Shown here in pieces: positions 2,672-63,851 of a DNA stretch of 64,000 nt. The position numbers and the translations under genes were made by a program. The notes under the pieces were generated by a model, which was not told where the DNA came from, did no database searches, and saw only the letters and a program-made list of their open reading frames with translations. Source of the DNA: a virus (lineage: Duplodnaviria > Caudoviricetes); the IMG/VR virus record IMGVR_UViG_2974682767_000001, positions 5,898-69,897 of that record. One strand, written 5' to 3'. Position 1 is the first letter of the stretch. The number at the start of each line of letters is the position of its first letter.

Positions 2672-2727
2672 GGCGGGCCATTCCCGCCGAACAAGAACGA
2701 CAATACCGTAAAACTCGGGATTGTCAA
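2672..2727 (-). promoter_or_regulatory. conserved promoter cassette (TTGACA-16-TATTGT plus stem)
   Basis: TTGACA ATCCCGAGTTTTACGG TATTGT, then GGCGGG-AATGG-CCCGCC. Confidence 0.85.
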
Positions 2728-2747
2728 ACCCAGCTCGCCAGGAGTTT

Positions 2748-2767
2748 GCACACCCGTCGTCTACGGT
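2748..2767 (+). promoter_or_regulatory. candidate GCAC-N10-TAnnnT promoter for the capsid gene
   Basis: GCAC acccgtcgtc TACGGT; same geometry at four other structural/lysis genes. Confidence 0.55.
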
Positions 2768-2854
2768 TCGGCAGCAGAGGGAACCTGCCCGGTTGTGTAC
2801 CGAGGGACGCTCACCGCAGACCAACGAGTTAGTGACCGAACCGAGGAGTTCGCA

Positions 2855-4726
2855 GTGACCATCCTGACGCCGACGGCCCCGGCCCGTCGCATCATCCGCC
2901 TCCACGGCGTGGGCCAGTTCACCGCCGCCGTCGGGTTCCAGATGCCCGACGCGGACGCCATCGCCGCCATGAGCGTGGCCGAGCTGGACGCCCTGCTGGA
3001 GGCCGCACGCGCCGAGGCGCATGTGTTCGAGGCACAGCACGCCGCTGGCCGCACCCTGTCCGCCGACGACATCAGCGCGCTGCGTGCGCTCGTCGGTGAG
3101 GGCGAGGCCATCGACACCCTGGAGGCCGCGCGGGCAACCGCCGTCGCCGCCGAGGCCGACCACAGCGCCGAGCTGGGCGACCTGCTGTCCCGTGCCGCCG
3201 GTCGGCGCGCACCCGAGGCACCGGCTGGCACCCCAGCCAACGGTGGCCCCGAGGGCGAGCAGAACGACGACGAGGACGGCAACGCCGACGGCGCGACCGA
3301 CACCGGCCAGGCCGGTACCGGCGAGCAGCCGCCCGCCGCGTCCGCGCCGGGTGACGCCGCACCGCAGACCGATGCCGTGGCCGCGAGCGCGGGCACGACC
3401 GGCGCGCAGCGCGGTGTCAATTTCGGCAACACCGGCACCGACGCCCCGCCCGCTGGCGGGGGCGATGCGCCCGAGCCGGGCTGGGAACTGAACCCCAGCG
3501 TTCCCGGCTACACCTCGGGCCAGTCGCGCGTCGGGTTCGCGGGCATCGCCCAGCGACTCGATGCCATCCGGCCCGGCAGCCGTGCCGCGCGCAACGGCAA
3601 GCCGCGCACGATGGACGGCCAGTCGTTCACTGCGCAGGTGGTCGCCGCGCTGTCCCGCGACATGCCGGTGGTGGACGACCCGCACGCGCTGGTCGCCGCC
3701 ATCAACACCGCCACCAGCCAGGTGAACGGCCAGCGCGTCACCGCGCAGGCGCTCACGGCTGCCGGTGGCTGGTGCGCGCCGTCGGAACAGCTCTACGACT
3801 TCTGCGATGTGCCGGACGCGACTGACCTGCTGTCGCTGCCGGAAATCGCCATCAACCGGGGCGGCGTCCGCTGGCCGCGCGAACCCGACCTGTCCGGCAT
3901 CTTCGAGGACTTCGAGTGGTTCTTTACGGAACCCGAGCTGGAGGCCACCGACGCCGAGGGCAACCCCACCGCCGTCAAGACGTGCGTGGAGGTCCCGTGC
4001 CCCGAGGACTTCGATGAGATCCGTCTCAACGCGGTCGGCTGGTGCGTGGAGGCGGGCATCCTCCAGGAGCAGGGCTGGCCCGAGCTGATCGAGTGGTTCA
4101 TGCGCTCGCTGACGCAGGAGCACCTGCGGGCGCTGTCCCGCCGGTCCATCCTCAACATCGTCGCCGGTTCGGGTGCCGCCAAGGTCATCCCGCCCGCCTC
4201 GGTGCTGGGGTCGGTCGCCTCGGTGCTCAACAGCCTCGCGCTGGTCGCCACGAACATCCGCCTCAAGCGGGGTCTGTCGCGCACGGCGACCATCGAGGGC
4301 ATCGCGCCGTCGTGGTTCTTCGAGGTCCTGCGCGCTGACCTGGCGTTCCGCGAGGGCACCGACACGTTCGCCGTCACCGACGCCCAGATTCTCGGGTGGC
4401 TGACGGCGCGCAACATCGCGCTCCAGTTCGTGGGTGACTGGCAGACCCGTTCGGCGGGGCTGCCCGGTCACATGGACACCCTCAAGTGGCCGACCACGGT
4501 GGACATCGTGATGTACCCGGCGGGCACCTGGTTCCGTTCGATGTCCAACGTCATCGAGCTGGGCGTCATGTACCCCAAGGAACAGCTCCAGGTCAACCGC
4601 TTCACCCGCATGTTCACCGAGGACGCCATCGCGGTGGGCAAGCGGTGCGGTGAGTCCGCCCTGGTGCGGGTCCCGCTGGACGTGAACGGTGCCATCGGCG
4701 AGCGGCTGGCAGCCAGCAACGCCTAA
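2855..4726 (+). CDS. major capsid protein with N-terminal fused scaffold region
   Basis: GAGGAG RBS before GTG 2855; acidic Ala-rich helical/low-complexity N-terminal half followed by a ~320 aa shell domain starting near AAGGWCAPSEQLYD; position after protease. Confidence 0.85.
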   Translation: MTILTPTAPARRIIRLHGVGQFTAAVGFQMPDADAIAAMSVAELDALLEAARAEAHVFEAQHAAGRTLSADDISALRALVGEGEAIDTLEAARATAVAAEADHSAELGDLLSRAAGRRAPEAPAGTPANGGPEGEQNDDEDGNADGATDTGQAGTGEQPPAASAPGDAAPQTDAVAASAGTTGAQRGVNFGNTGTDAPPAGGGDAPEPGWELNPSVPGYTSGQSRVGFAGIAQRLDAIRPGSRAARNGKPRTMDGQSFTAQVVAALSRDMPVVDDPHALVAAINTATSQVNGQRVTAQALTAAGGWCAPSEQLYDFCDVPDATDLLSLPEIAINRGGVRWPREPDLSGIFEDFEWFFTEPELEATDAEGNPTAVKTCVEVPCPEDFDEIRLNAVGWCVEAGILQEQGWPELIEWFMRSLTQEHLRALSRRSILNIVAGSGAAKVIPPASVLGSVASVLNSLALVATNIRLKRGLSRTATIEGIAPSWFFEVLRADLAFREGTDTFAVTDAQILGWLTARNIALQFVGDWQTRSAGLPGHMDTLKWPTTVDIVMYPAGTWFRSMSNVIELGVMYPKEQLQVNRFTRMFTEDAIAVGKRCGESALVRVPLDVNGAIGERLAASNA

Positions 4727-4826
4727 GCGCGCCGCGTAGCAGACTGGAGGCGGTAATCGTGGTCAACCCGAGGCCGACCACGATTGCCGCCTCCTCCACG
4801 TTCACCCCCAGGAGGGACCGACCGAC

Positions 4827-5621
4827 ATGACCGCCCCCGTTCTCGATGCCGTGCAGTTCACCGCGCCGCCGCTGAACCCCGCCGTTCCCGGCCTGTTCGC
4901 CGCGACCGACTGGCAGAACGACCCAGACAATCGGTTCCTCCACGGTGTCGTCATCCGTGGGGCGAACTACGGCGGCGACGAGGCCGCAGGCGTGTGGCAT
5001 GCGCCCTGGTGCGCGCCGCCGCCCATCGACCAGGATGAGCGCAAGTTCGGCGAGCGCCCCGACATCCACGACCGTTTCGACCCCATCACCGTGTGGGCAT
5101 ACGACGAGTGCGACCTGACCGAGCCGTCCCGGCGCGAGGTCGAGGCACGCGCGGCGCAAATCCTGCGGCTGGAGGAACAGCCGATGGTGGAGCGCGAGTT
5201 CGCCGCCCGGCTGCTGCTGGACGCTGGCGACCCCGACGTGGCCGACGCCACCGGCATCGAGACTCGGCCCAACCTCAAGGCGGCGGTGGCCTACCTGGAG
5301 GGCGAGATCGCCAAGACGAACACGATGGCGTTTCTGCACGTCGCCGCCGACCTGGTGGCGACCGAGGCCGGGCTGTTCGTCAAGTCCGGCACCCAGCGGG
5401 TCAGCCCGTCCGGCCATACGTGGATCATCGGCGGCGGCTACGTGGACGGCCTGGAGAACGTCATCGTGGCCACGTCGCAGCCGTTCGGCTGGCGGGACGC
5501 GCCGACCACGCGGACGGCCATTGACGAGCGCCACAATCTCTACGCTGCCGTTGCGGAGCGTAGCGTCACCATCGGTTACGAGGCACTGATTGCCGCCGTC
5601 GCCGTCGTCCCGGCACCGTAG
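4827..5621 (+). CDS. putative minor capsid/decoration protein
   Basis: Directly follows the capsid gene; GGAGG RBS; 264 aa. Confidence 0.6.
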   Translation: MTAPVLDAVQFTAPPLNPAVPGLFAATDWQNDPDNRFLHGVVIRGANYGGDEAAGVWHAPWCAPPPIDQDERKFGERPDIHDRFDPITVWAYDECDLTEPSRREVEARAAQILRLEEQPMVEREFAARLLLDAGDPDVADATGIETRPNLKAAVAYLEGEIAKTNTMAFLHVAADLVATEAGLFVKSGTQRVSPSGHTWIIGGGYVDGLENVIVATSQPFGWRDAPTTRTAIDERHNLYAAVAERSVTIGYEALIAAVAVVPAP

Positions 5622-5634
5622 GAGGAACAGGACC

Positions 5635-6633
5635 ATGCCCGAGGGAATCATCGCCACCGACCACGGTGACGGGTTCGTCACCCTGGATTTCGTGGACAAG
5701 GCGCTGCGTGGCCCGGCACTGGCCGAGCTGGTGGAGATCGGCGGTGCCGCGAGCATCGAGACGATTTCGCGCGTCGGCCCGCGCCGCCAGTACCGCGTGC
5801 CGCTGGGCAACGCCACCGAGGCGGGGCTGGTGGACGACGAGAACACCGTGGAGGGTGTGCGCTCGGCGGGCCAGGACACCGGGCGCGCCGCTGCCCTCAA
5901 GGCGGCGGACCCGAACGTCAACCCCGGCGCGGACAATGCCGATTGGCACACCCCCGTGGCCGAGCACACCAGTGCCAACGCCTACGTGGGCCAGGTGCCC
6001 AACAGCCAGGTGTTGGACCGTGCGCAGGTGTTCACCGGGGACGCGGGCAGCTACGGCGGCAGCGGCAAGGCCACCACCCACCGCGACCTCATCGAGCACG
6101 TCAAGGCGAACAGCTCGGTGCTGGCCGTCGGCGGCGTGCAGCCCGCCACCGAGGGGTTCGCCCCGATGGCGATGCGGGCGTCCGAGATCAGTGGCGCGCT
6201 GGCCGACCAGACCGCCGCGCTGGGGTCCGACCCCGGCGCGTGGGGTGAGCCGGGCGGCGAGGCGCTGGCCGAGGATTACACCAGCGTCCAGGCCACCCGC
6301 GAGGGCGAGTCCGCGCAGGGCGAGGACCAGACCGGCGATGCCGTCATCACCAACGACCCCGGTGTGTCGGACAGCCCGACGCCGCCGACCATCGTGGAGG
6401 GCGGCGACCCGACGACCGGCGACCCCGGCACGCAGGGCGGCGACGAGCCGACCACGCTGGAGCCGACCCCGGCACCGGCCACGCAGCCGTATCCCGAGGG
6501 CACGCCGACCGAGGACTGGAAGCGTGCCGAGCTGGACGCCTACGCCCTCGCGGTCAAGGGCATCGACACCACCCAGGAACCGAACAAGGCGGCGGTGGTC
6601 GCGGCCATCCAGAACGCCCCGACGCCGACGTGA
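5635..6633 (+). CDS. hypothetical virion-region protein with acidic Pro/Thr linker and short C-terminal helical domain
   Basis: GGAGG RBS; C-terminus PTEDWKRAELDAYA...NKAAVVAAI resembles HeH/SAP-like bihelical modules. Confidence 0.7.
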   Translation: MPEGIIATDHGDGFVTLDFVDKALRGPALAELVEIGGAASIETISRVGPRRQYRVPLGNATEAGLVDDENTVEGVRSAGQDTGRAAALKAADPNVNPGADNADWHTPVAEHTSANAYVGQVPNSQVLDRAQVFTGDAGSYGGSGKATTHRDLIEHVKANSSVLAVGGVQPATEGFAPMAMRASEISGALADQTAALGSDPGAWGEPGGEALAEDYTSVQATREGESAQGEDQTGDAVITNDPGVSDSPTPPTIVEGGDPTTGDPGTQGGDEPTTLEPTPAPATQPYPEGTPTEDWKRAELDAYALAVKGIDTTQEPNKAAVVAAIQNAPTPT

Positions 6634-6663
6634 TGACCAGTCATTACAACCGGGGATGAGCAG

Positions 6664-7137
6664 ATGAACCAGGCCGACCGCCTGGCGCTGGCCGACAAGC
6701 TGGCAGCCGAGCACACGCGCTACGTCGATTTCGTGCGAACAGCCACCGTGCTGCTCGGCCTGCTGCCGATGATGTATGGAGGTCTGACGTGGGTCTACGG
6801 CGACCGCCTGTGGGCGGGCAACGCGGTGTACGGGACCGCGATGGGGGTGCCGGGCGCACCGCAGTCGTGGGGCGTCCTGTTCGTAACGCTGGGGGTGGGC
6901 GTCATCGCGTCGGCCCGGCTGGGGCGGCGGCGCTGCATCGCGGGGTTTACCCTCGCCTCGGCCTTGATGCTGGCCATGTTCATGGTCACGTTTCTCACCG
7001 AGGTGGTTGGCAACGGCCAGGTCCAGGCGCTACCGCCCGCCCTGGTCTATGGCATCGTTTCGCTGCTGTTCTTGTCCCGGTCCCGCATGGCGTGGGTCGG
7101 TCGCCGTCCTCGGCGGCAGAAAGGGTCGGCTGGCTGA
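6664..7137 (+). CDS. membrane protein (about 4 TM)
   Basis: Four hydrophobic segments and a basic C-terminus. Confidence 0.75.
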   Translation: MNQADRLALADKLAAEHTRYVDFVRTATVLLGLLPMMYGGLTWVYGDRLWAGNAVYGTAMGVPGAPQSWGVLFVTLGVGVIASARLGRRRCIAGFTLASALMLAMFMVTFLTEVVGNGQVQALPPALVYGIVSLLFLSRSRMAWVGRRPRRQKGSAG

Positions 7138-7628
7138 TGGCCGTTACTTCACGGGTGGGGCGCTGGCTCGCTCACACCCGGTTCGTTCCTACCCCGCTGT
7201 ACCGCCTGGTGCTGCTCGCCGCTGGCGTCTCGGCGGTGCTCCAGCTCGTCTACGGCGCACCCGAGTCGGTCACGGCCACCAGCCAGGCCGGGTGGTTTGA
7301 CTGGCTGTTCGTGGGGTTCCAGCTCGTCGGCGCGGTGTGCGCCATCTGGGGGCTGTACCTGGTGGAGGGTGAGAACGCGCCCCCGTGGGTGGAGTCGCCC
7401 GGCGACCCGCACACCATCGACCCCGAGAAACTACAGCGGTCGTTGACGCTGGAGCTGTTCGGCCTGATCCTGCTGCAAACGTGCATGGCCATCCAGATCG
7501 TGGCGACCATCGCCTACAACGGGCGGGTGCCGTCGGCGCTGTCCACATGGGTGGTCATCGTGTTCTGGCTATGGTCGTTTTTCCGTGACCGCGACATCAT
7601 CCGCGCCGTTCGGCGGCTGACCCGATGA
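7137..7628 (+). CDS. membrane protein (about 4 TM)
   Basis: ATG overlaps the prior TGA; hydrophobic segments. Confidence 0.75.
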   Translation: MAVTSRVGRWLAHTRFVPTPLYRLVLLAAGVSAVLQLVYGAPESVTATSQAGWFDWLFVGFQLVGAVCAIWGLYLVEGENAPPWVESPGDPHTIDPEKLQRSLTLELFGLILLQTCMAIQIVATIAYNGRVPSALSTWVVIVFWLWSFFRDRDIIRAVRRLTR

Positions 7629-7957
7629 CTGCCGCCCTGGTGCTCCAGATGATCGGCGGGGCTGGATTCCTCGCCGGGGTGGCGGCGCTGCTGCACTTTC
7701 TCAACACCCGCAAGTCCACCAAGACCAAGGGCAGCGCCGAGGCGTACCAGGCGTACCGCACGTTCGTCGCCGGGGCGTTCGAGGACGCCGCCGGGGTGAC
7801 TAGTCGAGTGACCGCCGACCGCGACAAACTCGGGGTCATCCGCACGGTGCTCATCGAGCTGGTCCAGGACGTGATGAGTCTGGCCCGGCGCAAGGGCGCA
7901 ACCCCCGACGAGCTGGAGCCGTACCAGGACCGACTCGATGAGGTGCGCAGCCGGTAG
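7625..7957 (+). CDS. single-TM membrane protein with soluble helical C-terminus
   Basis: ATGA overlap; N-terminal hydrophobic helix. Confidence 0.75.
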   Translation: MTAALVLQMIGGAGFLAGVAALLHFLNTRKSTKTKGSAEAYQAYRTFVAGAFEDAAGVTSRVTADRDKLGVIRTVLIELVQDVMSLARRKGATPDELEPYQDRLDEVRSR

Positions 7958-7959
7958 CT

Positions 7960-7979
7960 GCACGGTCCTGGCCTATGGT
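7960..7979 (+). promoter_or_regulatory. candidate GCAC-N10-TAnnnT promoter for the major tail gene
   Basis: GCAC ggtcctggcc TATGGT. Confidence 0.55.
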
Positions 7980-8042
7980 CGGGGCAACCTCGGAACACGA
8001 CCCCCGGCGCGTAGCGCCACCTGATCCAGGAGGAACGACCAG

Positions 8043-8843: not shown

Positions 8844-8865
8844 GCTCGGCGCATCAGCGAAGCGA

Positions 8866-8899
8866 CAACCGCCCTCGGCCCTCGGGTCGGGGGCGGTTG
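8866..8899 (+). terminator. intrinsic terminator after major tail gene
   Basis: CAACCGCCCTCGGCC-CTCG-GGTCGGGGGCGGTTG stem. Confidence 0.7.
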
Positions 8900-27372: not shown

Positions 27373-27741
27373 TTGTACGACCCCACACCCGGCTATATCG
27401 ACTGTGAGTCCGACGGCGAGGACCACCCCACGCCGCCCGGCCACCCGTACCGCGAGCTGGATGTGCCGGGCGTCGGCGTCATCCATGCGCGCAAACCGCT
27501 GCCCAACGCCATCCCCGCGCTGGCCGGTGCCGCCAACGCCAAGGTGACGCCGGGCACCCGCATCGACCAGTTGGACATCTTCATCCAGAACCACGTCGCT
27601 GACGGCGAGTTCGAGGCGCTACTGGCGCGGATGATGGACCCCGACGAGGAGATGCCGCCGGACACCATGCTGCGCGTCAGCCGGGCGATTGCAACGGCGG
27701 GTACCGCCCGCCCTACACGGCGGTCATCAACCTCGCGCTGA
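27373..27741 (+). CDS. tail-assembly-chaperone-like protein (gpG-like), paralog of 11001..11636
   Basis: GGAGG RBS, TTG start; LLARMMDPDEE vs FSRLMDPDED. Confidence 0.65.
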   Translation: MYDPTPGYIDCESDGEDHPTPPGHPYRELDVPGVGVIHARKPLPNAIPALAGAANAKVTPGTRIDQLDIFIQNHVADGEFEALLARMMDPDEEMPPDTMLRVSRAIATAGTARPTRRSSTSR

Positions 27742-29617: not shown

Positions 29618-29783
29618 CCAGGCGGCAGACGCCGTAGCCGACCATCCCGCCGCCGACGAGCATGGCACCCCAGCCCGACACCGCCGTCAGCACCACGCAG
29701 CCCGCGACGATGACGAGCACCGCCGACAACGGGAACGGGTGACGCGGCAGCGGTGCCGGGCGTCCGAGGCGAAACACGAACAT
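29556..29783 (-). CDS. small membrane protein (2 TM)
   Basis: Start overlaps upstream stop; hydrophobic; overlaps convergent gene by ~60 nt. Confidence 0.55.
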   Translation of the reverse strand: MFVFRLGRPAPLPRHPFPLSAVLVIVAGCVVLTAVSGWGAMLVGGGMVGYGVCRLVSPPPGSSATARNAERPTVP

Positions 29784-29989
29784 CAGCGCCCGCCGTGCCA
29801 GCCACGGCCCGGTCGCTCGGCGTGCCAGGCGTCAATCGTCTCGGGGAACCAACCCCGGTGGATGCCCACCTCCACGTCGTGCGGGGGCAGCTTGATGCCC
29901 GACAGGCTGCGGGCGGACTTCATGCCGAGGCGCTTGGCCACCTGGTCGGTGGACAGCGCCACGATGGTGGTCTGGGTCGTCGCGGTCAT
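29783..29989 (-). CDS. small helix-turn-helix DNA-binding protein (AlpA/excisionase-like)
   Basis: LSTDQVAKRLG...GWFPETIDAW; TAACAT 7 nt upstream (leaderless). Confidence 0.75.
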   Translation of the reverse strand: MTATTQTTIVALSTDQVAKRLGMKSARSLSGIKLPPHDVEVGIHRGWFPETIDAWHAERPGRGWHGGR

Positions 29990-29999
29990 GCAGCACATG

Positions 30000-30473
30000 T
30001 TACCCGACTTGTGCGGGTTTGTGTGAGTCGGTGACGTGGAGGCTGATGGGGTGGCCGTCGGTGGCCTCCACCGCCGCGCGCCCGGCGACCAGGCGCAGCC
30101 ACTCGTCGGCGGCGTTGCCGTCGGTGACCACGGCCAGGGGCAGCGGGCCGTCCTCGGGGTCCCGGCGGTCGGCCTCGTCCAGGACCATCTCCACCTCATG
30201 GGCGAACTGGTCGGCCAGGTCCTCCACCGCGCCGAGCAGCCCCGGCGGGCAGGCGTCACGGCCCGACTCGATGCGCTGGTAATCGCGCCGGTCGCGGTTC
30301 AGCCTCGCGGCCATGTCGCGCTGTGACAGGCCGATGAACAGGCGGTGGGCGCGGATGACCTCGCCGAGGCCGTGGGTGTACTCGGGCGGCGACAGCGGCG
30401 GCGTGGGGGTGCGTGGGGCCATCACGGCGGGCAACGGGCCGTTCGGATGGATGACGGGCAGGTCGGCGGACAT
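30000..30473 (-). CDS. XRE-family HTH DNA-binding protein
   Basis: IRAHRLFIGLSQRDMAARLN...YQRIESG; GAGGAG RBS. Confidence 0.8.
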   Translation of the reverse strand: MSADLPVIHPNGPLPAVMAPRTPTPPLSPPEYTHGLGEVIRAHRLFIGLSQRDMAARLNRDRRDYQRIESGRDACPPGLLGAVEDLADQFAHEVEMVLDEADRRDPEDGPLPLAVVTDGNAADEWLRLVAGRAAVEATDGHPISLHVTDSHKPAQVG

Positions 30474-30547: not shown

Positions 30548-31312
30548 TTACCACCCGGCCTTGGCGGCGCAGATGGGGCCGATGCCCCGCGCCCTGGACT
30601 CGTCGTTCGTGAGGGTGCGACCGCACAGCCCGCACTCGCCGAGTTCGTGGCCGTAGCGCGCGGCTGCTGCCTCGGCACCGACGGCGGCGATCTTGCGCAG
30701 GATGGCGTCCCCGGCTGCCCGGCTCATCCGCTGCTCGTCGTCGGACACCATCAGCTTGACGAACACGAACCCGGCCCACTTGCCCTCGGTCGGGCGGTCC
30801 ACCTTGTAGAACGCGGTGGCGTTGACCGCGCCGTCCTCGGTGTCGATGGCGTAGCGCCCGGCGGGGACGACCTCGGCGGACGGGCGGTCGCCCGTGACCG
30901 GCAGCTCGGCGTCGGCCTTGGGGCTGCCGGGGGTCAGGTCGAACAGCCAGGAGATGAGCTTGGACGCGCCGTCCTTGGTCAGCGGGGCGTACCAGAACGC
31001 GATGGTGGCGTCATCGGTGCGCTCGGCCATGTGGGCGAGGATGGCGTTGACGCGCTCGCCGTAGGACGCCGACCGGCCCACGGTGCCGTTGATGACCCGG
31101 CTGATTTCCGCCGGGGTGGCGTCGTTCATCGGGGCCAGCGCCCAGCCGATGACGGTGTTGAGCACCGCGCACCGCTCCACGTACTTGCGGGCGGACTCGG
31201 GCTGGTCGCGCCACACGCCGCGCTCCAGCGCCGGGACGATGGCCCGCACGATCTGGGCGTCGGTGGCGACGGCGGCGGGGCGAGGGGCGGGGGTGTTGAA
31301 CGGTGAACCCAT
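30548..31312 (-). CDS. hypothetical protein with C-terminal DUF6011-like Zn motif
   Basis: CGLCGRTLTNDESRARGIGPIC. Confidence 0.75.
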   Translation of the reverse strand: MGSPFNTPAPRPAAVATDAQIVRAIVPALERGVWRDQPESARKYVERCAVLNTVIGWALAPMNDATPAEISRVINGTVGRSASYGERVNAILAHMAERTDDATIAFWYAPLTKDGASKLISWLFDLTPGSPKADAELPVTGDRPSAEVVPAGRYAIDTEDGAVNATAFYKVDRPTEGKWAGFVFVKLMVSDDEQRMSRAAGDAILRKIAAVGAEAAAARYGHELGECGLCGRTLTNDESRARGIGPICAAKAGW

Positions 31313-31333: not shown

Positions 31334-31389
31334 GGCGGGCCATTCCCGCCGAACAAGGACCACAATACCGACTTATGCGGGATTGTCAA
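31334..31389 (-). promoter_or_regulatory. conserved promoter cassette
   Basis: TTGACA ATCCCGCATAAGTCGG TATTGT, then GGCGGG-AATGG-CCCGCC. Confidence 0.85.
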
Positions 31390-39389: not shown

Positions 39390-39461
39390 GGTGGCCCGGT
39401 CGCTCGGGGTCGCCGCGCGACCGGACCACCCAGACTTTACCGAAAATCTCGGGATTGTCTA
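39390..39461 (-). promoter_or_regulatory. promoter family variant with long leader hairpin upstream of helicase
   Basis: TAGACA ATCCCGAGATTTTCGG TAAAGT; 14-bp stem 39390-39430. Confidence 0.7.
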
Positions 39462-51900: not shown

Positions 51901-52093
51901 GCACGACCGTGGCGGCAAACCCGTGGTCCGCGCCCGCCAGGACCGGGCAACGGCGTGCTACTACCCCGGCAGCCACCGGGTGGTGCTCGTCGCCGACAAG
52001 GGCGACATTGACGCGGCGTTCGCCGCGCTCACCGAGCTGCGCGACCACCTGGCCGCGCAGGGACGAGGCGATGGGGGTACCCCGACACCATGA
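51875..52093 (+). CDS. hypothetical protein
   Basis: GAGGAGG RBS. Confidence 0.65.
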   Translation: MGVDYVAIEHDRGGKPVVRARQDRATACYYPGSHRVVLVADKGDIDAAFAALTELRDHLAAQGRGDGGTPTP

Positions 52094-52794
52094 CCACCGC
52101 ACTGGCTGACCCCGCCGACGACGGGGAGGACGACGAGCTGGCCCGCCAGCGCGAGCGCCTGATGATCCGACGCACCACCGTGATGTTCATGCGCAACGCC
52201 GGTAGCACCTGGCCGACCATCGCCGCCGAGGTCGGCGTCAGCGAGGCCACCTGCCGCAAGGACTACGCGGTGGTGTGCCGCGACATCAACGCCGAGCAAC
52301 CGGCCAACATCGTGGCCCGGCACCGCGCGGTCATATTCGACATCCAGCGCGCCAACTATCCGGCCATGATGCGGGGCGACAAGGACGCCGCGCAGACCAT
52401 CCTCAAGGCGCTGGACCGCGAGGCCAAACTGCTCGGCCTGGACGCGCCCACGCGCATCCTGGCCAACGTCTCGGGCGAGGAGTTCGCCAACGAGGCGGCG
52501 CGGCTCATCGCGCGCATCAACGAGCTGGACCCCACAACCATGAAGGGACTGACCCGTGTCCGACCAGAAAACCCCGACATCATCGACGCCGAGGCCGTTG
52601 ACCAACCTGATGGCCTACCGGCTGCGCAAGGCGGCGAGGACGGCAGCCTCGCGGGTGGGGCTGGCCCCGCCGACGACGCCGCCGATGCCAGCGCAGGACA
52701 TGAGGCCGGACGTGCCCGAGGCGTACAAGGACACGCTGGCGACCCCATCGACCCCACCGACCTCGGCGGTTGGTCCAACATCGAGGACGACTGA
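52090..52794 (+). CDS. HTH protein, candidate terminase small subunit
   Basis: TWPTIAAEVGVSEATCRKD HTH; REAKLLGLDAP; acidic tail. Confidence 0.65.
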   Translation: MTTALADPADDGEDDELARQRERLMIRRTTVMFMRNAGSTWPTIAAEVGVSEATCRKDYAVVCRDINAEQPANIVARHRAVIFDIQRANYPAMMRGDKDAAQTILKALDREAKLLGLDAPTRILANVSGEEFANEAARLIARINELDPTTMKGLTRVRPENPDIIDAEAVDQPDGLPAAQGGEDGSLAGGAGPADDAADASAGHEAGRARGVQGHAGDPIDPTDLGGWSNIEDD

Positions 52795-54150: not shown

Positions 54151-54242
54151 CCCCGCACTGCTGGGCGGCTGTGCTCATCTCCTGCCTCGCCCTCGGGTTC
54201 GCCATCGCCGCGTTCTCGCTGGCCCTGGCGGCGATGCCATGA
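54147..54242 (+). CDS. 31-aa single-TM peptide
   Basis: ATGA overlaps both ends; AGGAGG RBS. Confidence 0.55.
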   Translation: MTPHCWAAVLISCLALGFAIAAFSLALAAMP

Positions 54243-54781
54243 CCTCGGCGGACATCCCCAAGTGGCAGCCCGACGAGCTGCTGGTACCGGCCATCCTGGC
54301 GGGCAGCCCCACCACGATGGACGACCTGACGCTGGCTGACCAGGCGTGGGTCGTGCTCCAGCTCAAGGACCTCGGCCACACCGCCGAGTACACCGCCGAA
54401 CGCCTCGGGTGCTCGGTGCGGCTGGTGCGGGCGCGCATCAGCGACGACCTCGGCCAGGTCATGCGGCGATACATGGACACCGCCGAGCATTTCGACCGCG
54501 AGCACGCGATGGCCCACAGCGAGGTCCAACGCCTGGCCCGCGCCCTCGGCGAGGCCGAGCGCGACCGGGACCGATACCTCGGCGAGCGCAACCGGCTCAT
54601 CGACCGGGCGATGTCCGGCGAGGGCGGGCCGGTGTTCCGGTGCGGGTGCCCGCAGACTCGATACAACACCTACGTGGCCCCCAAGACGGGCAAGCGAGGG
54701 TGTCGGCATCACCGCACCCTCGCCCAGCAGCGTTACCGCGAGCGACGGGCCGGGGCGCGGCGCACGCCGGTCACGACGTAG
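54239..54781 (+). CDS. HTH protein with coiled coil and C-terminal Cys/His motif
   Basis: GHTAEYTAERLGCSVRLVRAR; CGC...NTY...GCRHHR. Confidence 0.7.
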   Translation: MTSADIPKWQPDELLVPAILAGSPTTMDDLTLADQAWVVLQLKDLGHTAEYTAERLGCSVRLVRARISDDLGQVMRRYMDTAEHFDREHAMAHSEVQRLARALGEAERDRDRYLGERNRLIDRAMSGEGGPVFRCGCPQTRYNTYVAPKTGKRGCRHHRTLAQQRYRERRAGARRTPVTT

Positions 54782-54991: not shown

Positions 54992-55020
54992 ACAATACCG
55001 TAGAAGTCGGGAAACTACAA
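54992..55020 (-). promoter_or_regulatory. conserved promoter, stem-less leaderless variant
   Basis: TTGTAG TTTCCCGACTTCTACGG TATTGT. Confidence 0.75.
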
Positions 55021-55079: not shown

Positions 55080-55253
55080 TCAGACGCGCCGCCCGTTGTG
55101 GGCCAGGTTGAACGCGATGACCTCGTTGAGGTGGGCGGTGGCTGCCTCCTCGGTGGGGCCGTAGCCGCTGGCGCTGGCACCGTGCTCGGTGATGGTGGCG
55201 CGGACGCGGGCGTCGGCGGGGCTGAAACGGTCGGTGGTGAAAACGATGTCCAT
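55080..55253 (-). CDS. 57-aa hypothetical protein (below ORF track cutoff)
   Basis: MDIVFTTDRFSPADARVRATITEHG...; between a family promoter and a terminator. Confidence 0.75.
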   Translation of the reverse strand: MDIVFTTDRFSPADARVRATITEHGASASGYGPTEEAATAHLNEVIAFNLAHNGRRV

Positions 55254-55280: not shown

Positions 55281-55335
55281 GGCGGGTCTGTCCCGCCTAC
55301 AAGAACCACAATACCGTATAAGTCGGGATTGTCAA
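55281..55335 (-). promoter_or_regulatory. conserved promoter cassette
   Basis: TTGACA ATCCCGACTTATACGG TATTGT, then GGCGGG-ACAGA-CCCGCC. Confidence 0.85.
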
Positions 55336-58596: not shown

Positions 58597-58868
58597 GGTG
58601 CGTAACGTCCTTTGCTGTCGATGTTGAGTCCGCCCCGCCGTAGCCGGGCGATGTCGTTGGCGCGGGCGCGCCAATCGCTGGGGGTCCCGGCGATGCCGCC
58701 GAGGTATTCGCCGTCCAGGTAGACCTTGTAGTGTCCATCCTTGCCACGGTGGGGCCGGACTTCACCGCCCGCCGCGCGGATGGCGTCCAGCAGCTTGCGG
58801 GTGTCCTTGTTGGACCCCCGGCACCCGGCGGCGCGCTTGCTGCCGGGCTGGGGTTCGGGGCGGGTCAT
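58593..58868 (-). CDS. HicA-like toxin/RNA-binding protein
   Basis: RKLLDAIRAAGGEVR...GHYKVYLDG...IAGTPSDWRA...RLRR.G. Confidence 0.65.
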   Translation of the reverse strand: MTRPEPQPGSKRAAGCRGSNKDTRKLLDAIRAAGGEVRPHRGKDGHYKVYLDGEYLGGIAGTPSDWRARANDIARLRRGGLNIDSKGRYAP

Positions 58869-59143
58869 TGGCCCGTGGCCTGCCACTCGCCGGTACGCCG
58901 CGAGCGCATCGCCAGCGTCTCGCCGCTGATGCGGTAGACGCTGCCGAGGACCCCGGTGTCCACGATGACGACCTCGGGCGCATAGGGCGGGTGTCCGAGG
59001 CGGTGCTGGGGCGGTCGGATGCCCTCGGCGGCGAGCACGGCCAGCCACTCCTCGCTGGTGCCGCTGAACTGGTCCGAGTCCGGCTGGTTGGCGTCCTCCC
59101 ACGTCTCGCCGTCGATGCGGACCCACTCGGGCTGGTGCGTCAT
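58865..59143 (-). CDS. hypothetical protein
   Basis: ATGA overlap. Confidence 0.7.
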   Translation of the reverse strand: MTHQPEWVRIDGETWEDANQPDSDQFSGTSEEWLAVLAAEGIRPPQHRLGHPPYAPEVVIVDTGVLGSVYRISGETLAMRSRRTGEWQATGQ

Positions 59144-59364
59144 CGGGCACCTCCACGCGCGAGGTAGCCCCGGTAGACCATGACGGCCAGGTCAATGTCG
59201 CTGTTGGCGGCGACCTCGGCCAGGCTGCGGATGTCGCCGTTGTCGAACTGCTCGGGGACGAACGTGCCGACCGCGACGGCGCAGTGGACGTAGTGCGGGA
59301 ACTCATGGGCGTCCCGCGTGAGGCAGGTGCAACGGTCGTCGTCGCCTGCGTTCCAGTGGTTCAT
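59140..59364 (-). CDS. hypothetical protein driven by cassette
   Basis: GAGGAGG RBS directly after conserved stem. Confidence 0.8.
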   Translation of the reverse strand: MNHWNAGDDDRCTCLTRDAHEFPHYVHCAVAVGTFVPEQFDNGDIRSLAEVAANSDIDLAVMVYRGYLARGGAR

Positions 59365-59377
59365 CGTGACCTCCTCG

Positions 59378-59432
59378 GGCGGGTCGTTCCCGCCTACACC
59401 AAGGACAATACCGTACAGCTCGGGATAGTCAA
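59378..59432 (-). promoter_or_regulatory. conserved promoter cassette
   Basis: TTGACT ATCCCGAGCTGTACGG TATTGT, then GGCGGG-AACGA-CCCGCC. Confidence 0.85.
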
Positions 59433-59446
59433 GCCTTGCACGCTGG

Positions 59447-59680
59447 TTATTTCTGGGTGATGACCCGGCCAGCGCGCGGCAAAGGTGCCGACTTGGCGGG
59501 TACCGACTTGGCGGGTGTCGGCCTCGCCGGTACCGCGTGCTTGCGGGCCACCCCGTCCTTGCGCGGGGCCAGGCGCTTGCCGCAGACGGCGCAGGCCACG
59601 GCGGCGGCGTAGCGGACACCCCCGTGGGGTCCCGTCCACCAGACGGGCAATGTCCGCTCGCCGACGCCGGGGCACTGCAC
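59447..59680 (-). CDS. small basic Cys-containing protein
   Basis: Start overlaps upstream TAG; CAVCGK...RKH. Confidence 0.6.
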   Translation of the reverse strand: MQCPGVGERTLPVWWTGPHGGVRYAAAVACAVCGKRLAPRKDGVARKHAVPARPTPAKSVPAKSAPLPRAGRVITQK

Positions 59681-59934
59681 TACTCGCCCCCGTGCTCGGC
59701 AGCCGACCCGCCGAACCCGCCGTTGTGGAACCCGCCGTGTTTGGCTTTGGCCGAGAACAGCGGGCGGCGCGAGGACTGCCACGCCACGGGCATGAACCCG
59801 CCCGCCGACATGAAGCTGTCCAGCCCCTCGAACAGCTCGGCACCGCGCTCCACGTCGGCCTGGCTGATGCGCTGCTCGCTGCGCACCCTGGCGACCAGGG
59901 CACGCAGCTCGCGCAGCGTCTCGTCGGGGTCCAC
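59680..59934 (-). CDS. conserved actinophage hypothetical protein
   Basis: MDPDETL...FEGLDSFMSAGGFMPVAW. Confidence 0.7.
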   Translation of the reverse strand: MDPDETLRELRALVARVRSEQRISQADVERGAELFEGLDSFMSAGGFMPVAWQSSRRPLFSAKAKHGGFHNGGFGGSAAEHGGE

Positions 59935-60443
59935 TACGGCCTGTCCTGCGCGTCGTAGACCGGCACGGTGCGCCGCACGCGCCCGTAGCGCGCCATCTCC
60001 TCGGCCACGGGCGGCTCGGCCCCGGCTGGCATCAAGGACCGGCTGTCGGTGAACTGGTACAGCGTGTGCCAATTGGCCTCGCCGATGAAGTTGAGCAGGC
60101 CGGGCCAGTTGAAACGGCGCGTCTCCTGGCCGGTGACGGCCCACCGCGTCACGCGGGTGCGGCCACGGCCCTCCTGCCAGCCAATCGCGGCGTAGGTGTA
60201 GACCCGCCCCGACTCGTACCGGCTGAACATGACGAACTCGGGCAGACCGGCCTCCACGGCGGGTTCCTGCGGACGGCGTGCCGCCTCCTCGGCCTGGCGG
60301 GCGGCGAGCGCCTGCTGTGCCAGCTCGTCGGCGATGGCCCGCGCCCGGCGCGCCTCGGCGTCGATTTCGGCGGACGTGCGCACGCCGGACAGCCGCGAGG
60401 GGTTCGGCAGCGCGTCGGCCTCGGGCGTTTCGGAAAATGACAT
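59934..60443 (-). CDS. hypothetical protein
   Basis: AGGAGG RBS with CACAACC element. Confidence 0.8.
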   Translation of the reverse strand: MSFSETPEADALPNPSRLSGVRTSAEIDAEARRARAIADELAQQALAARQAEEAARRPQEPAVEAGLPEFVMFSRYESGRVYTYAAIGWQEGRGRTRVTRWAVTGQETRRFNWPGLLNFIGEANWHTLYQFTDSRSLMPAGAEPPVAEEMARYGRVRRTVPVYDAQDRP

Positions 60444-60580
60444 GGGTACCTCCTGGTGGTTGTGGTTGTCGTGCGCTCCTCGCGGTGGTCCCGACCCACC
60501 CCCGCCACCCTGCGCGGGGCGGCGGCGCTCCATGCGCTACGAGGACTGCGCGCGTTGGCCGGTCGCGCCCCCGGTGCAGC

Positions 60581-60964
60581 CTAGTCGGGCAGCTTGGCCC
60601 CCTCGATGTGGTTGACCCAGTTGATGACCTTGAGAACGTCCAGGCCGTTGGCGTTGTCCAGGTCGATGACCGCCACGCGGTCGGTGGTGCCGTAGGACAG
60701 GTTGGCCACGGTGCCCGCCACCCAGTTCGGGGTCAGCTTGTGCCAGGTGACGCCGCTGCGCTGGTCGTTCTCGTTGCCCTCAAACGGCGGGCGGATGCTG
60801 CCGTCGGTCAGGCCGATCATCATGTCGAACAGGATGGCCTCGCCGGACTCCACCCGGTCGCTGCTGCTCATCTTGCCGGGAATGGTCGGGTAGGTGCTGC
60901 CGCCGTCGGTGCTGGGTCCCTTGCGGTCGGGGGTGCCGGTGACGATGGCGATGGTGGCGGACAT
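60581..60964 (-). CDS. hypothetical protein driven by cassette
   Basis: GAGGAG RBS. Confidence 0.85.
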   Translation of the reverse strand: MSATIAIVTGTPDRKGPSTDGGSTYPTIPGKMSSSDRVESGEAILFDMMIGLTDGSIRPPFEGNENDQRSGVTWHKLTPNWVAGTVANLSYGTTDRVAVIDLDNANGLDVLKVINWVNHIEGAKLPD

Positions 60965-60984
60965 GGGGTTCTCCTCGCGGTCGG

Positions 60985-61039
60985 GGCGGGTCGTTCCCGC
61001 CTACAAGAAAGACAATACCGTATCGGTCGGGATTGTCAA
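60985..61039 (-). promoter_or_regulatory. conserved promoter cassette
   Basis: TTGACA ATCCCGACCGATACGG TATTGT, then GGCGGG-AACGA-CCCGCC. Confidence 0.85.
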
Positions 61040-61058
61040 ATCGCCTGGTTGCAAGCGG

Positions 61059-61211
61059 TCACAGCGTGCCCATCAGCCAGCCGACGGGCAGCGCCAGGAA
61101 CGGCGCGACGACCAGAATGGCCCCCATCTCGGTCAGGAACGAGCTGCCCCAGCGGTCGCCGAGCAGGACGAGCACCAGGCCGATGAGCACCAGCACGCCG
61201 AGACTCACCAT
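61059..61211 (-). CDS. small 2-TM membrane protein
   Basis: Hydrophobic ~50 aa. Confidence 0.6.
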   Translation of the reverse strand: MVSLGVLVLIGLVLVLLGDRWGSSFLTEMGAILVVAPFLALPVGWLMGTL

Positions 61212-61465
61212 TGCCGAGGCACCCCCACCACGATGTCCTGGCCGAGACGCCGGGCGTCGGCGGCGATGGCCAGCATGTCCCGTTGCCACGGGGCCAGCCC
61301 CGTGCCGCCCAGCGCCTCGTATGTGGTCGCCAGCTCCAGCCAGCGGCGGCGCTCGCGCTCGGGGGCCAGGATGGCGTCCAGCTCGCCGAGGGACCACCGT
61401 GTGGCGAGCCGGGCGACCCTGCGCGCCCGCAGGCGGTGGCGCTGGAGGCGTAGACGGCGCATCAC
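61205..61465 (-). CDS. hypothetical Arg-rich protein
   Basis: GTGA overlap. Confidence 0.6.
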   Translation of the reverse strand: MMRRLRLQRHRLRARRVARLATRWSLGELDAILAPERERRRWLELATTYEALGGTGLAPWQRDMLAIAADARRLGQDIVVGVPRQW

Positions 61466-61815
61466 GGGACCACCAGCCGGAACTCGCTGCGGAGGAGGCA
61501 ATGGCGCTTGCCGCGCGTGGTGCGCAGGCAGAACAGCGGCGTGCCGTCGCCGGTCGTGGTGGCCATCGTGATGGTGGCCCGCATCCCGGCGTACTCCACG
61601 ACATCGCCCACGACGACATCGGCGCGGAACGGGTCGCCCACACGCGCCAGGATGGCCTCAAACGCCGCGTGCTGGGCGCTGGCCTTGGTCGTGTGCCCGG
61701 CGGTCGCCACGCACGGCCCGAGGGCGCGCCAGGCGGGTCCGGTGACCGGCCCACGCTCCACGGTGTACGCCCCGGCGCGGTACTGGCTGTCCTGGTCGCC
61801 CCGGTGCCACTTCAT
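61462..61815 (-). CDS. hypothetical protein
   Basis: ATGA overlap. Confidence 0.7.
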   Translation of the reverse strand: MKWHRGDQDSQYRAGAYTVERGPVTGPAWRALGPCVATAGHTTKASAQHAAFEAILARVGDPFRADVVVGDVVEYAGMRATITMATTTGDGTPLFCLRTTRGKRHCLLRSEFRLVVP

Positions 61816-62054
61816 CGGGCCACGCCGTCCTGATAGAACACGTCCCGGCCCTGCTGGCTGTAGTACGCCCTGATGCGGGCCGATAGCGTGGCGATGGGCC
61901 GGTTGAGTGCCTTGGCGGCGTCGTGCTCGCCGGACGCGGTGAGGATGGCCTGCGCGGTGGCGAGGGTCTGCCGCGTCTTGCTCGCGCGGTTCACCCCCGA
62001 CCGGCTGGTGATGGGTTTGGCCACATCGGCGACGTGGCTGGCGGTGATGCTCAT
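61812..62054 (-). CDS. hypothetical protein
   Basis: AGGAGG RBS with CACAACC element. Confidence 0.75.
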   Translation of the reverse strand: MSITASHVADVAKPITSRSGVNRASKTRQTLATAQAILTASGEHDAAKALNRPIATLSARIRAYYSQQGRDVFYQDGVAR

Positions 62055-62078
62055 GGGGGTCCTCCTGGTGGTTGTGGG

Positions 62079-62252
62079 TTACAGCAGTCGGCTGATGCCG
62101 GTGGGGATGCGGGCCGAGCCGCCACACCCGCACAGCGTGCGGGCGGCGTACTCGGGCGAGGGGCAGCAGGCGTTTGCGTGGAACTCGTCCCACCACTCCT
62201 CGCGGGTCATGGCCTCGGCGAACGCCTGGCCGAGGTTGGCCGGGCGCGCCAT
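62079..62252 (-). CDS. small Cys-containing protein
   Basis: Start overlaps upstream TGA. Confidence 0.65.
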   Translation of the reverse strand: MARPANLGQAFAEAMTREEWWDEFHANACCPSPEYAARTLCGCGGSARIPTGISRLL

Positions 62253-62455
62253 CAGCCGCACGCCTTGGCCATGCGCAGGTACTCCCACCCCTGCGCGATG
62301 AGGTCGGCCTGGATGTCCTCGCCAGCGAACAGCTCGGCGCGGTCGGCCATGTCCTGCGCCGCCTGGAGCAGGATGGACTTGCGCTCGGCGAGCTGCACCC
62401 GCGCCTCGGCGGCGTTGCGGGCGGTGAGCCGGGGGAGAGTGAGCGTGGTGTCCAT
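62252..62455 (-). CDS. small hypothetical protein driven by cassette
   Basis: GAGGAGG RBS. Confidence 0.75.
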   Translation of the reverse strand: MDTTLTLPRLTARNAAEARVQLAERKSILLQAAQDMADRAELFAGEDIQADLIAQGWEYLRMAKACG

Positions 62456-62478
62456 GTGGACCTCCTCGGGGTCAGGGC

Positions 62479-62537
62479 GGCGGGGCGGTCCCGCCTGCTG
62501 ATGAGAACTACTTTACCGTAAAACTCGGGATTGTCAA
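62479..62537 (-). promoter_or_regulatory. conserved promoter cassette
   Basis: TTGACA ATCCCGAGTTTTACGG TAAAGT, then GGCGGG-ACCGC-CCCGCC. Confidence 0.85.
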
Positions 62538-62671
62538 ACCGGCACCACCACGCTGCCGGTCATCTTGTGTTCGCGCTGGTAGGCGCGTGCCTCGTCGTAG
62601 CTGTCGAACGGCCCGTAATCGCCCATGTCCCACTCGATGACGTGGGGGCGGGCGTCCGCCGCGCCGGTCAT
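62534..62671 (-). CDS. 45-aa hypothetical protein (below ORF track cutoff)
   Basis: ATGA overlap; MTGAADARPHVIEWDMGDYGPFDSYDEA...; stop lies in next -35. Confidence 0.65.
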   Translation of the reverse strand: MTGAADARPHVIEWDMGDYGPFDSYDEARAYQREHKMTGSVVVPV

Positions 62672-62940
62672 CGGCGTGCGGCGTAGCGCCGCCAGTTGCC
62701 GTTACCGCTGCCCTGGACGAACATGCCCCGCGCGTCCAGGTAGTCCAGGACGCTGCGCACGTCGTGGCTGTCGGCCTTGACGATGCGGGCGAGCTGGCTG
62801 GGGCTGTAGTCGCCGCCGCGCTCGGTCAGGGCGGCGTCGATCTTGCCGACGAGCCGGTTGCCCTCGGGGGTCAGCAGGCTGTAGACGCGGCGTCCGCCGA
62901 TGACCTCCACCGGGCTGGTCTGGTCGATGACGTTGCTCAT
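62668..62940 (-). CDS. winged-helix-like DNA-binding protein
   Basis: YSPSQLARIVKADSHDVRSVLDYLDARG...WRRY. Confidence 0.7.
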   Translation of the reverse strand: MSNVIDQTSPVEVIGGRRVYSLLTPEGNRLVGKIDAALTERGGDYSPSQLARIVKADSHDVRSVLDYLDARGMFVQGSGNGNWRRYAARR

Positions 62941-62957
62941 GGTGTTCCTCCTGGTCC

Positions 62958-63013
62958 GGCGGGTCGTTCCCGCCTCACATGAACCACAATACCGTAAAAG
63001 TCGGGAAAGTCAA
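62958..63013 (-). promoter_or_regulatory. conserved promoter cassette
   Basis: TTGACT TTCCCGACTTTTACGG TATTGT, then GGCGGG-AACGA-CCCGCC. Confidence 0.85.
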
Positions 63014-63055
63014 ACCCTGGCCAGATTATGCGTCTGACCAGGGCCGACGAGTCGT

Positions 63056-63778
63056 CTACCGTGTCTGCGCGATGATCGAGAACCGCAGCCCGCAGACGTA
63101 GCGGCTGACGACCTTGTGCGGGCCGGGGTTCTTGCGCGGGTCCAGCTCGCGCACCTCGGCGGCGACATCCATGAGCGCGGTGGCGCGCTTGAACGCCCAC
63201 AGGTCGCCCTCGTTGGTGACGCTGCGGCCACGGGTCAGGTAGTCCGCCTCATCGCGCACGTACATCTTGAGGGCCGTCTGCGCGGCGGCGAGGTCGGTGC
63301 CCTGGTGGATGCTGACGTGGGCCATTGCGCGGTCCTCGTCGCTGGCCCGGCTGTTGTCGGTGTCCCGCGTGACGTAGAACGTGGTGACCGGCTCGGCCTT
63401 GGCCGGTGCCTCCAGGACCAGCCCGCCGTCGGCGGTGGGGGTGCCCTCGGCCAGGATCGCCTCGGCGGCGTCCACGTCGGCCTGCTCGGTCATCTCGGCC
63501 TCGGCGACAGCGGCGCGCAGCTCGGCCTCGGACACGACCGGCACCACGATGATCTCGAAAAACGTCTTGCCGTCGCAGTACGGGACGCCGACGCGCCACC
63601 GCTTGGATTCCTTGACGGCCAGGTCCTCGCGCCCGTTGAACGACAACTGGCCCCAGGTGGCCGTCTCGCGGGTGTCGCCGTGGAGGCACAGCACCGCGTG
63701 GGTGTAGACGCGGGCGGTGCCGCGCTTGATCTGGGTGCCGTCGGGGGCGGTGGCGATGAAGGTGGTTTTGGTGGCCAT
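63056..63778 (-). CDS. hypothetical protein driven by cassette
   Basis: AGGAGG RBS; 240 aa. Confidence 0.85.
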   Translation of the reverse strand: MATKTTFIATAPDGTQIKRGTARVYTHAVLCLHGDTRETATWGQLSFNGREDLAVKESKRWRVGVPYCDGKTFFEIIVVPVVSEAELRAAVAEAEMTEQADVDAAEAILAEGTPTADGGLVLEAPAKAEPVTTFYVTRDTDNSRASDEDRAMAHVSIHQGTDLAAAQTALKMYVRDEADYLTRGRSVTNEGDLWAFKRATALMDVAAEVRELDPRKNPGPHKVVSRYVCGLRFSIIAQTR

Positions 63779-63796
63779 GTCGGTCCTCCTGCTCGG

Positions 63797-63851
63797 GGCG
63801 GGTCGTTCCCGCCTACAAGAACCACAATACCGTAGAAGTCGGGAAAGTCAA
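63797..63851 (-). promoter_or_regulatory. conserved promoter cassette
   Basis: TTGACT TTCCCGACTTCTACGG TATTGT, then GGCGGG-AACGA-CCCGCC. Confidence 0.85.

Follow-up and report, generated by a model that had tools for sequence, protein, structure and literature searches.

The window analysed here is the stretch of 64,000 nucleotides that makes up bases 5898-69897 of a 69,897-bp virus record (IMG/VR IMGVR_UViG_2974682767_000001), with a GC content of 70%. The closest relatives are the Mycobacterium phages Knocker, Funsized and Rinkes (Bclasvirinae, cluster B), which share approximately 81% identity across the structural arm; the DNA is that of a mycobacteriophage of cluster B (Bclasvirinae). 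The genome layout is typical for cluster B: structural genes lie on the plus strand, a lysis cassette diverges from a short leftward operon, and the replication genes, followed by a right-end array of small genes of unknown function, are read leftward. Our subject is a short inverted repeat, GGCGGG-N5-CCCGCC, that recurs directly downstream of the promoters of this phage. The pattern has nine exact matches in the window, compared with a mean of 0.17 in shuffled sequences (0 of 100 shuffles reach nine), and no match in the part of the 69,897-bp genome outside the window. Eight of the nine copies lie on the transcribed side of minus-strand SigA-type promoters of one promoter family:

63797-63813, minus strand: leader hairpin, loop AACGA, ahead of gene 63056-63778
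62958-62974, minus strand: leader hairpin, loop AACGA, ahead of gene 62668-62940
62479-62495, minus strand: leader hairpin, loop ACCGC, 14 nucleotides past the -10 box, ahead of gene 62252-62455
60985-61001, minus strand: leader hairpin, loop AACGA, ahead of gene 60581-60964 (DUF7280)
59378-59394, minus strand: leader hairpin, loop AACGA, ahead of gene 59140-59364
55281-55297, minus strand: leader hairpin, loop ACAGA, ahead of gene 55080-55253
31334-31350, minus strand: leader hairpin, loop AATGG, heading the operon of a DUF6011 protein and a helix-turn-helix (HTH) protein with a predicted Aca2 fold, divergent from lysin A
2672-2688, minus strand: leader hairpin, loop AATGG, ahead of reverse gene 2344-2652, within the structural arm
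63824-63851, minus strand: SigA-type promoter, TTGACT, 16 nucleotides, TATTGT, with the spacer palindrome ATNCCG-N7-CGGNAT
62986-63013, 62510-62537, 61012-61039, 59405-59432, 55308-55335, 31362-31389 and 2700-2727, minus strand: sister promoters

An earlier sequence-only reading of this DNA had placed the eight stems at these positions, and all are exact copies. It had also described identical arms around variable loops that begin with A, which holds on the minus strand: the loops are AATGG (2), ACAGA (1), AACGA (4) and ACCGC (1). Counted from the final T of the -10 box, the stems, placed there 10-14 nucleotides past the box, follow after 10, 10, 10, 10, 11, 11, 11 and 14 nucleotides, that is, 10-11 in seven cases and 14 in one. 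The ribosome-binding site of the GGAG type that was said to follow most stems is present as GGAG or GAGG after 6/8, with weaker sites at 31334 and 55281. The promoters themselves consist of TTGAC(A/T), a 16-nucleotide spacer carrying ATNCCG-N7-CGGNAT, and TATTGT or TAAAGT, a combination with 12 matches in the window against 0.03 expected. This spacer inverted repeat lies between the -35 and -10 boxes in all eight stem-bearing promoters.

The promoter-hairpin module is also found in Knocker, Funsized and an IMG/VR relative, and in subclusters B1-B4. Oline (B1) has seven canonical copies plus two with a 3-nucleotide loop, Rosebush (B2) seven canonical and one variant copy, and Cooper (B4) four canonical and two variant copies; in 50 kb of Phaedrus (B3) there are ten canonical copies and one variant, among which the two plus-strand copies keep the sense orientation. 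The module also occurs in Tsukamurella phage TPA2 and in the unrelated 150-kb Gordonia phages Skog and CherryTomatoes, and further IMG/VR contigs carry it with quite different -35 and spacer sequences. Subclusters differ in their spacer repeat, and neither TPA2 nor Skog shows an evident one. The sequence-only reading had linked the stem to the spacer palindrome as containing its everted form; there is no sequence dependency between the two, because TPA2 and the Skog-like phages retain the stem with unrelated spacers.

Among phages, a 40-nucleotide query matches 336 records, and Mycobacterium phages account for 328 of these. In 185,579 scanned bacterial genomes, 104 stretches have a match, single and scattered, and the 80 inspected include approximately one real module. 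The whole Mycobacterium (4.7 Mb) and Nocardia genomes contain two hairpins each, none behind a promoter, against eight in the 64 kb of the window, and the hairpin density is approximately 300-fold higher in the window than in a host-type genome. Since host hairpins are few, none is promoter-linked and the bacterial matches are scattered singles, the element is phage-specific. The one stretch in bacterial data that looks like a real module is a B1-type promoter-hairpin in a Frankiaceae metagenome-assembled genome (MAG; contig JAFAZI010000136.1, L134), probably a cluster-B-like phage contig binned into the MAG; an HTH protein 66% identical to the window's (protein P0012) is also named from a Frankiaceae MAG. 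In Rfam searches, nothing in the window reached the gathering score and the stems had no match at E<=10, and we found no description of the hairpin element in the literature.

To describe how the stem varies, module sites were collected by allowing up to two differences (<=2) from the consensus arms with pairing not required. Canonical stems account for 92/107 sites. Where both arms have changed, the changes are compensatory in 10/10 cases (AGCGGG/CCCGCT, GGCGAG/CTCGCC, GCCGGG/CCCGGC and GACGGG/CCCGTC, with at least six lineages of origin), and 3/5 single arm changes give a G.U pair in the sense RNA. The sequence-only reading had proposed a covariation analysis across related phages, and the stem does covary: in a 108-site alignment 99.7% of cells pair, the ten both-side changes fall in 3/6 pairs, and 0/500 shuffles match this covariation. 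Pairs 4 and 6 are invariant and pair 3 varies once in that alignment, and pairs 1, 2 and 5 tolerate compensated changes. Gordonia phage Sour (L184; modules before gp45, gp68, gp71, gp75 and gp79) has switched all its leader hairpins to ATCGGG-N5-CCCGAT, and in its congener Yago84 (L185) the stems still read (A/G)GCGGG, the outer pair being an A-C mismatch in four. Hence, the outer pairs are free, and the inner CGGG/CCCG core and the loop A are fixed; the core CGGG-A-NN-(G/T)-N-CCCG persists even in Sour.

The loop differs between the strands. When the 57 sites found by a symmetric pattern are oriented along transcription, the first loop base is A in 57/57, its mirror position 5 is T in only 4/57, and position 4 is G in 51/57; two exceptions with G at position 1 were seen outside this set. 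Loop length is 5 nucleotides in 95/97 modules. Perfecting of a palindrome by template switching could mimic compensation, but it could not yield the loop asymmetry. The stem structure is under selection and specific to one strand. A symmetric DNA-binding dimer would explain neither the compensation nor the loop asymmetry, and on this comparative evidence we conclude that the hairpin acts as RNA. The fixed loop length, the conserved loop bases and the invariant inner pairs further suggest that some factor reads it.

The position of the hairpin within the transcript can be estimated from the 80 modules with a 10- or 11-nucleotide gap. Nucleotide 7 after the -10 box is a pyrimidine in 73/80 and nucleotide 8 a purine in 74/80 (G in 64), and pyrimidine/purine is the usual -1/+1 pair. 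A second indication comes from a promoter of the same family that has no stem:

54992-55019, minus strand: stem-less family promoter with ATG at nucleotides 8-10 past the -10 box, a leaderless sibling

Further stem-less siblings with ATG at approximately nucleotides 8-10 occur in Knocker (L005:8512) and Oline (L023:43891 and 42563), and one in Rosebush (L024:37324) has ATG at nucleotides 9-11. The sibling mRNAs would be leaderless, starting at the A of the ATG. For 54992, where the stem had been said to be absent from a leaderless-looking transcript, this is confirmed, given that there is no stem and that the ATG is at nucleotides 8-10 past the -10 box. Each genome mixes hairpin-leadered and apparently leaderless early transcripts of one promoter family. 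The Y/R dinucleotide and the ATG position of the siblings together place the putative +1 at nucleotide 8 after the -10 box, 3-4 nucleotides before the stem, so the RNA would begin G-U-A or G-U-N-N and continue directly into the stem. With this start, 80/107 modules would have a 5' tail of 3-4 nucleotides. The Shine-Dalgarno sequence lies 0-10 nucleotides past the stem, and the predicted centroid fold of 8/8 leaders is the hairpin alone (approximately -12 kcal/mol), with Shine-Dalgarno and AUG unpaired. A terminator is rejected: both strands lack a U-tract after the stem, which stands downstream of its own promoter.

A candidate for the factor that reads the hairpin is encoded behind one of the hairpins:

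30000-30473, minus strand: candidate trans factor, a 157-amino-acid HTH_31 protein with a predicted Aca2 fold, encoded second in the operon of promoter 31362-31389
29783-29998, minus strand: second small DNA-binding protein (phrog_597), which always adjoins the HTH gene in relatives

The operon runs from the promoter (31362-31389) through the hairpin (31334-31350) and gene 30548-31312 to the HTH gene (30000-30473). Gene 30548-31312 (minus strand), directly upstream of the HTH gene, encodes a 254-amino-acid DUF6011/phrog_636 protein and is, by position alone, a candidate anti-defence gene. An HTH gene in a module-headed operon is also found in TPA2, an IMG/VR genome (G003), Skog, CherryTomatoes, Sour and Yago84. 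Homologs of the HTH protein occur in 505 phage records, all from Mycobacterium, Mycolicibacterium, Gordonia or Tsukamurella phages, and every complete hairpin-bearing genome searched has one. In the otherwise unrelated 150-kb Skog-like phages and in two IMG/VR lineages, the homolog is always beside a module: Skog gp16 and CherryTomatoes gp186 each lie between two modules, the gene in G003 directly follows a module, and a homolog is also present in a second IMG/VR genome (G007).

An AlphaFold2 (AF2) model of the HTH protein, built with 34 homologs, has a predicted local distance difference test (pLDDT) score of 95. Its only full-length structural matches are Aca2 (7ezy, 7b5j, 7vjo-q), SO3848 (2ox6) and YdiL (1s4k), at Z 9.8-11.2 over 103-120 aligned residues with a root-mean-square deviation of 2.2-2.7, and all other matches cover the HTH domain alone. 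The same three proteins appear among the homologs named in the Aca2 structure paper (PMC8434428). In the model, the protein has the Aca2 fold, that is, an HTH N-domain and an Aca2-type dimerisation C-domain.

Two other candidate readers were rejected, given that both are absent from Skog: the product of 52090-52794 (plus strand; phrog_645, 'Rnase E') and a gp75-like protein (54239-54781). The former is annotated as a 'DNA binding protein' in Knocker and is conserved in cluster B, TPA2 and G003; its RNase E label is probably a low-complexity artefact. A tblastn search of all open reading frames of the window against the module loci outside cluster B, which were partial loci, found no shared protein, and a later targeted search found the HTH protein.

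Our favoured reading, to which we give about an even chance, is that the hairpins are the RNA half of a putative Aca2-style switch, a promoter inverted repeat plus a hairpin in the 5' untranslated region (UTR), placed over all early operons. The analysis establishes the recurrence and position of the hairpin, selection on its pairing, its strand asymmetry, its phage-specific distribution, its co-occurrence with the HTH gene and, at the level of a model, the Aca2 fold; where transcription starts, any binding and the consequences for translation or stability we infer. Early after infection, host SigA RNA polymerase would start approximately 8 nucleotides past the -10 box at all tagged promoters, and each early mRNA would consist of 3-4 free nucleotides, the hairpin with its 6-bp stem and 5-nucleotide loop, and a Shine-Dalgarno sequence 0-10 nucleotides later. 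Before the regulator builds up, the stem near the 5' end should hinder RNases that depend on that end. The Aca2-fold protein (30000-30473) would accumulate from its own hairpin-tagged operon and then bind the spacer repeat of the promoters, the DNA half, and repress transcription; the same protein would bind the leader hairpin and block ribosome access or change the fate of the mRNA. DNA and RNA binding together would shut down all early operons simultaneously.

Several observations weigh against this reading. The HTH homolog was not detected in a 66%-complete contig with four modules, and the co-occurrence of hairpin and HTH gene stems partly, and within the cluster-B-like phages largely, from shared descent. 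The recognition helix does not track the stem variants: Sour and Yago84 share xHSYKR, with ATCGGG stems in one and near-canonical stems in the other. At E<=1, Pfam returns HTH_31, HTH_19 and HTH_3 for the protein, with no DUF1870, the Pfam family of Aca2/YdiL. Each leader has one hairpin here, compared with two bound by the Aca2 of phage ZF40. The folding-energy z-scores of the leaders are unremarkable (-0.3 to -1.9) and are uninformative at 70% GC. For cluster B phages, the literature yielded no data on binding, on start sites or on half-lives.

The strongest alternative dispenses with a trans reader. The hairpin would then be a purely cis-acting stabiliser or insulator at the 5' terminus that shields the triphosphate end from RNase E or RNase J and frees the ribosome site. 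Much of the leader anatomy fits, given that the stem is 3-4 nucleotides from the putative 5' end, Shine-Dalgarno and AUG are unpaired in every predicted fold, and pairs 1, 2 and 5 tolerate compensated changes. With the stem-less siblings leaderless, the 5' end would always be covered, by a hairpin or by a ribosome. 5'-terminal stem-loops are moreover an established class of stabilisers, and single-stranded 5' UTRs are substrates of mycobacterial RNase E (PMC10641625). Structure alone, however, would need neither a fixed 5-nucleotide loop (95/97) nor A at loop position 1 (57/57) and G at position 4 (51/57), and the same CGGG/CCCG core is kept in phages of three host genera despite differing promoter spacers. 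Host genomes do not use the element, which travels with one HTH family. We consider the stabiliser unlikely.

An operator in double-stranded DNA is a poorer fit, and we regard it as improbable. An HTH dimer on the 17-bp palindrome, at approximately +4 to +20, would block RNA polymerase, and the RNA hairpin would be incidental. The 6-5-6 dyad with half-sites 11 bp apart centre to centre does resemble classic phage repressor/Cro operators, the arms are nearly invariant at fixed spacing, and a conserved XRE-type HTH protein with an Arg-rich recognition helix co-occurs. A symmetric dimer cannot, however, explain a loop asymmetry that follows transcription (57/57 against 4/57), and the half-sites never drift independently, all ten double changes being mirror-compensated against approximately 0.2 expected per position. 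Two Oline modules with full promoters have 3-nucleotide loops, which would misplace the half-sites, and in the ZF40 Aca2 precedent the 5'-UTR repeat is unbound as DNA (PMC6765145). A transcription-level RNA signal, be it nut/put-like antitermination or an element close to the promoter that makes RNA polymerase pause or escape, is barely credible: the hairpin would form on nascent RNA right after initiation and boxB-like elements are likewise pentaloop hairpins downstream of early promoters, but the alignment flanks are variable with no conserved boxA-like sequence, the loop is not GNRA-like, the element stands at each of 8-16 promoters and not at just one or two operon starts, put is far larger (two stem-loops of approximately 70 nucleotides) than a single 17-nucleotide hairpin, and no N-like protein was identified. 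Among the three options that the sequence-only reading had left side by side, the compensatory changes, the strand-specific loop and the inferred +1 thus favour the 5'-terminal RNA hairpin, and the DNA operator and the nut/put-like signal fall behind.

Cluster B ranks among the largest groups of mycobacteriophages, and next to nothing has been described of how its genes are regulated. If the Aca2-style switch holds, one small protein and a 17-nucleotide RNA hairpin would explain how early genes are co-ordinated in these lytic phages, and the RNA-binding role of HTH regulators would extend from single anti-CRISPR operons to a genome-wide regulon. Genes behind tagged promoters, including the DUF6011 gene, would become early or anti-defence candidates, and the promoter and leader would form a compact, portable cassette for mycobacterial genetics, with a possible off-switch. 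A broader version, which we put forward tentatively and would sooner doubt than believe, is that the hairpin is a phage-wide tag of early mRNAs, through which one Aca2-fold HTH protein, acting on 8-16 leaders per genome and on the promoter DNA repeat, times early shut-off in cluster B as well as in Gordonia and Tsukamurella phages unrelated to it; an HTH protein that reads both DNA and RNA would then be a general early-to-late switch of lytic actinophages and not an anti-CRISPR accessory. Should only the cis-acting stabiliser hold, the hairpin would be a clean natural case of 5'-end protection in mycobacteria.

Some further features of the window resemble the set without belonging to it. The ninth exact match (27696-27712, plus strand), absent from the list of the sequence-only reading, lies inside coding region 27373-27741, in the codons A-G-T-A-R-P, and was rejected as a member: it is coding, its loop lacks the initial A on both strands, and the pairing is broken at the homologous place in Cooper. 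The palindrome is identical in Knocker, is kept with another loop in Oline, and coincides with the location proposed for a -1 frameshift. Two family promoters (63929-63956 and 63824-63851, minus strand) form a tandem pair, 105 bp apart, where the genome ends on the right; the outer one (63929-63956) has TATTCT and a different hairpin (GGGGTC...GACCCC) that replaces the canonical stem. A family-like promoter at 39434-39461 (minus strand) has a TAGACA -35 box that includes the stop codon of the upstream gene, and approximately 45 nucleotides downstream of it is a long hairpin (-29 kcal/mol) instead of the 17-nucleotide stem. In Knocker, Funsized, Oline and Rosebush, the corresponding position ahead of the helicase gene holds another long hairpin, the structure being kept and the sequence not; the long hairpin may be an attenuator or terminator.

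Multi-copy repeats of similar size are known from other actinophages. In phiC31, 17-bp conserved inverted repeats with many intergenic copies near early promoters are the DNA operators of the large c repressor. They are similar to the present element in size, copy number and early-promoter setting, but phiC31 is a temperate phage, its repeats are DNA operators and their sequence is unrelated. Cluster O mycobacteriophages carry TGTTCGG-N3-CCGAACA, likewise a multi-copy 17-bp dyad with invariant arms (PMC4351075); unlike here, those sites are scattered, many within genes, unoriented to transcription and not tied to promoters (PMC4351075). With the ompA-type 5'-terminal stem-loops (Emory, Bouvet and Belasco 1992, as cited in PMC10641625) the element would share a stable hairpin at most approximately 4 nucleotides from the putative 5' end. 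Structure suffices in stabilisers of that type, whereas the present hairpin has a fixed loop length, fixed loop bases and a fixed core sequence, and is phage-specific.

The closest parallels are the Aca regulators, which share one layout: a DNA motif covers the promoter, and an RNA motif begins immediately past the start site (PMC13551039). This layout, a promoter DNA repeat plus a 5'-UTR hairpin, occurs eight times in the window. Aca1 binds a single 5'-UTR stem-loop, with an unclear effect on translation and with mRNA turnover or titration as possibilities (PMC13551039). A single 5'-UTR stem-loop right after the putative start site, bound in Aca1 by an HTH autoregulator, is what the two have in common; Aca1 is a small one-domain HTH protein, and the motif sequence and the hosts differ. 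In phage ZF40 (a Pectobacterium phage), the repeat IR1, which separates the -35 and -10 boxes, is bound by Aca2 as DNA, and IR2 in the 5' UTR, which has the core bases of IR1 at a different spacing, is unbound as DNA (Birkholz 2019, PMC6765145); later work, in the summary given by PMC13551039, has Aca2 bind 5'-UTR hairpins as RNA and block translation (Birkholz 2024). The candidate regulator described here resembles ZF40 Aca2 in its HTH N-domain and Aca2-type C-domain (Z 10.5-11.2, predicted model) and in being encoded within the operon that it would control, and the promoters have an inverted repeat in the spacer and a second one that is transcribed, covaries and lies beside the ribosome site. 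Unlike ZF40 Aca2, the present system has a single hairpin per leader, a regulator with no DUF1870 sequence match, no known anti-CRISPR and a DUF6011 gene upstream, and instead of one acr operon there are eight copies (up to approximately 11 in relatives) over nearly all early operons of a lytic phage. An Aca2 'actino-motif' has been published (Birkholz 2024, via PMC13551039), and the copy ahead of the HTH operon may already be known under that name. The kind of switch is hence already published, and its scale, setting and motif are what differ here: the element stands at the head of each early operon that has a leader throughout a large cluster of lytic phages, consists of one pentaloop hairpin whose first loop base is a fixed A, and is also present in unrelated Gordonia phages.

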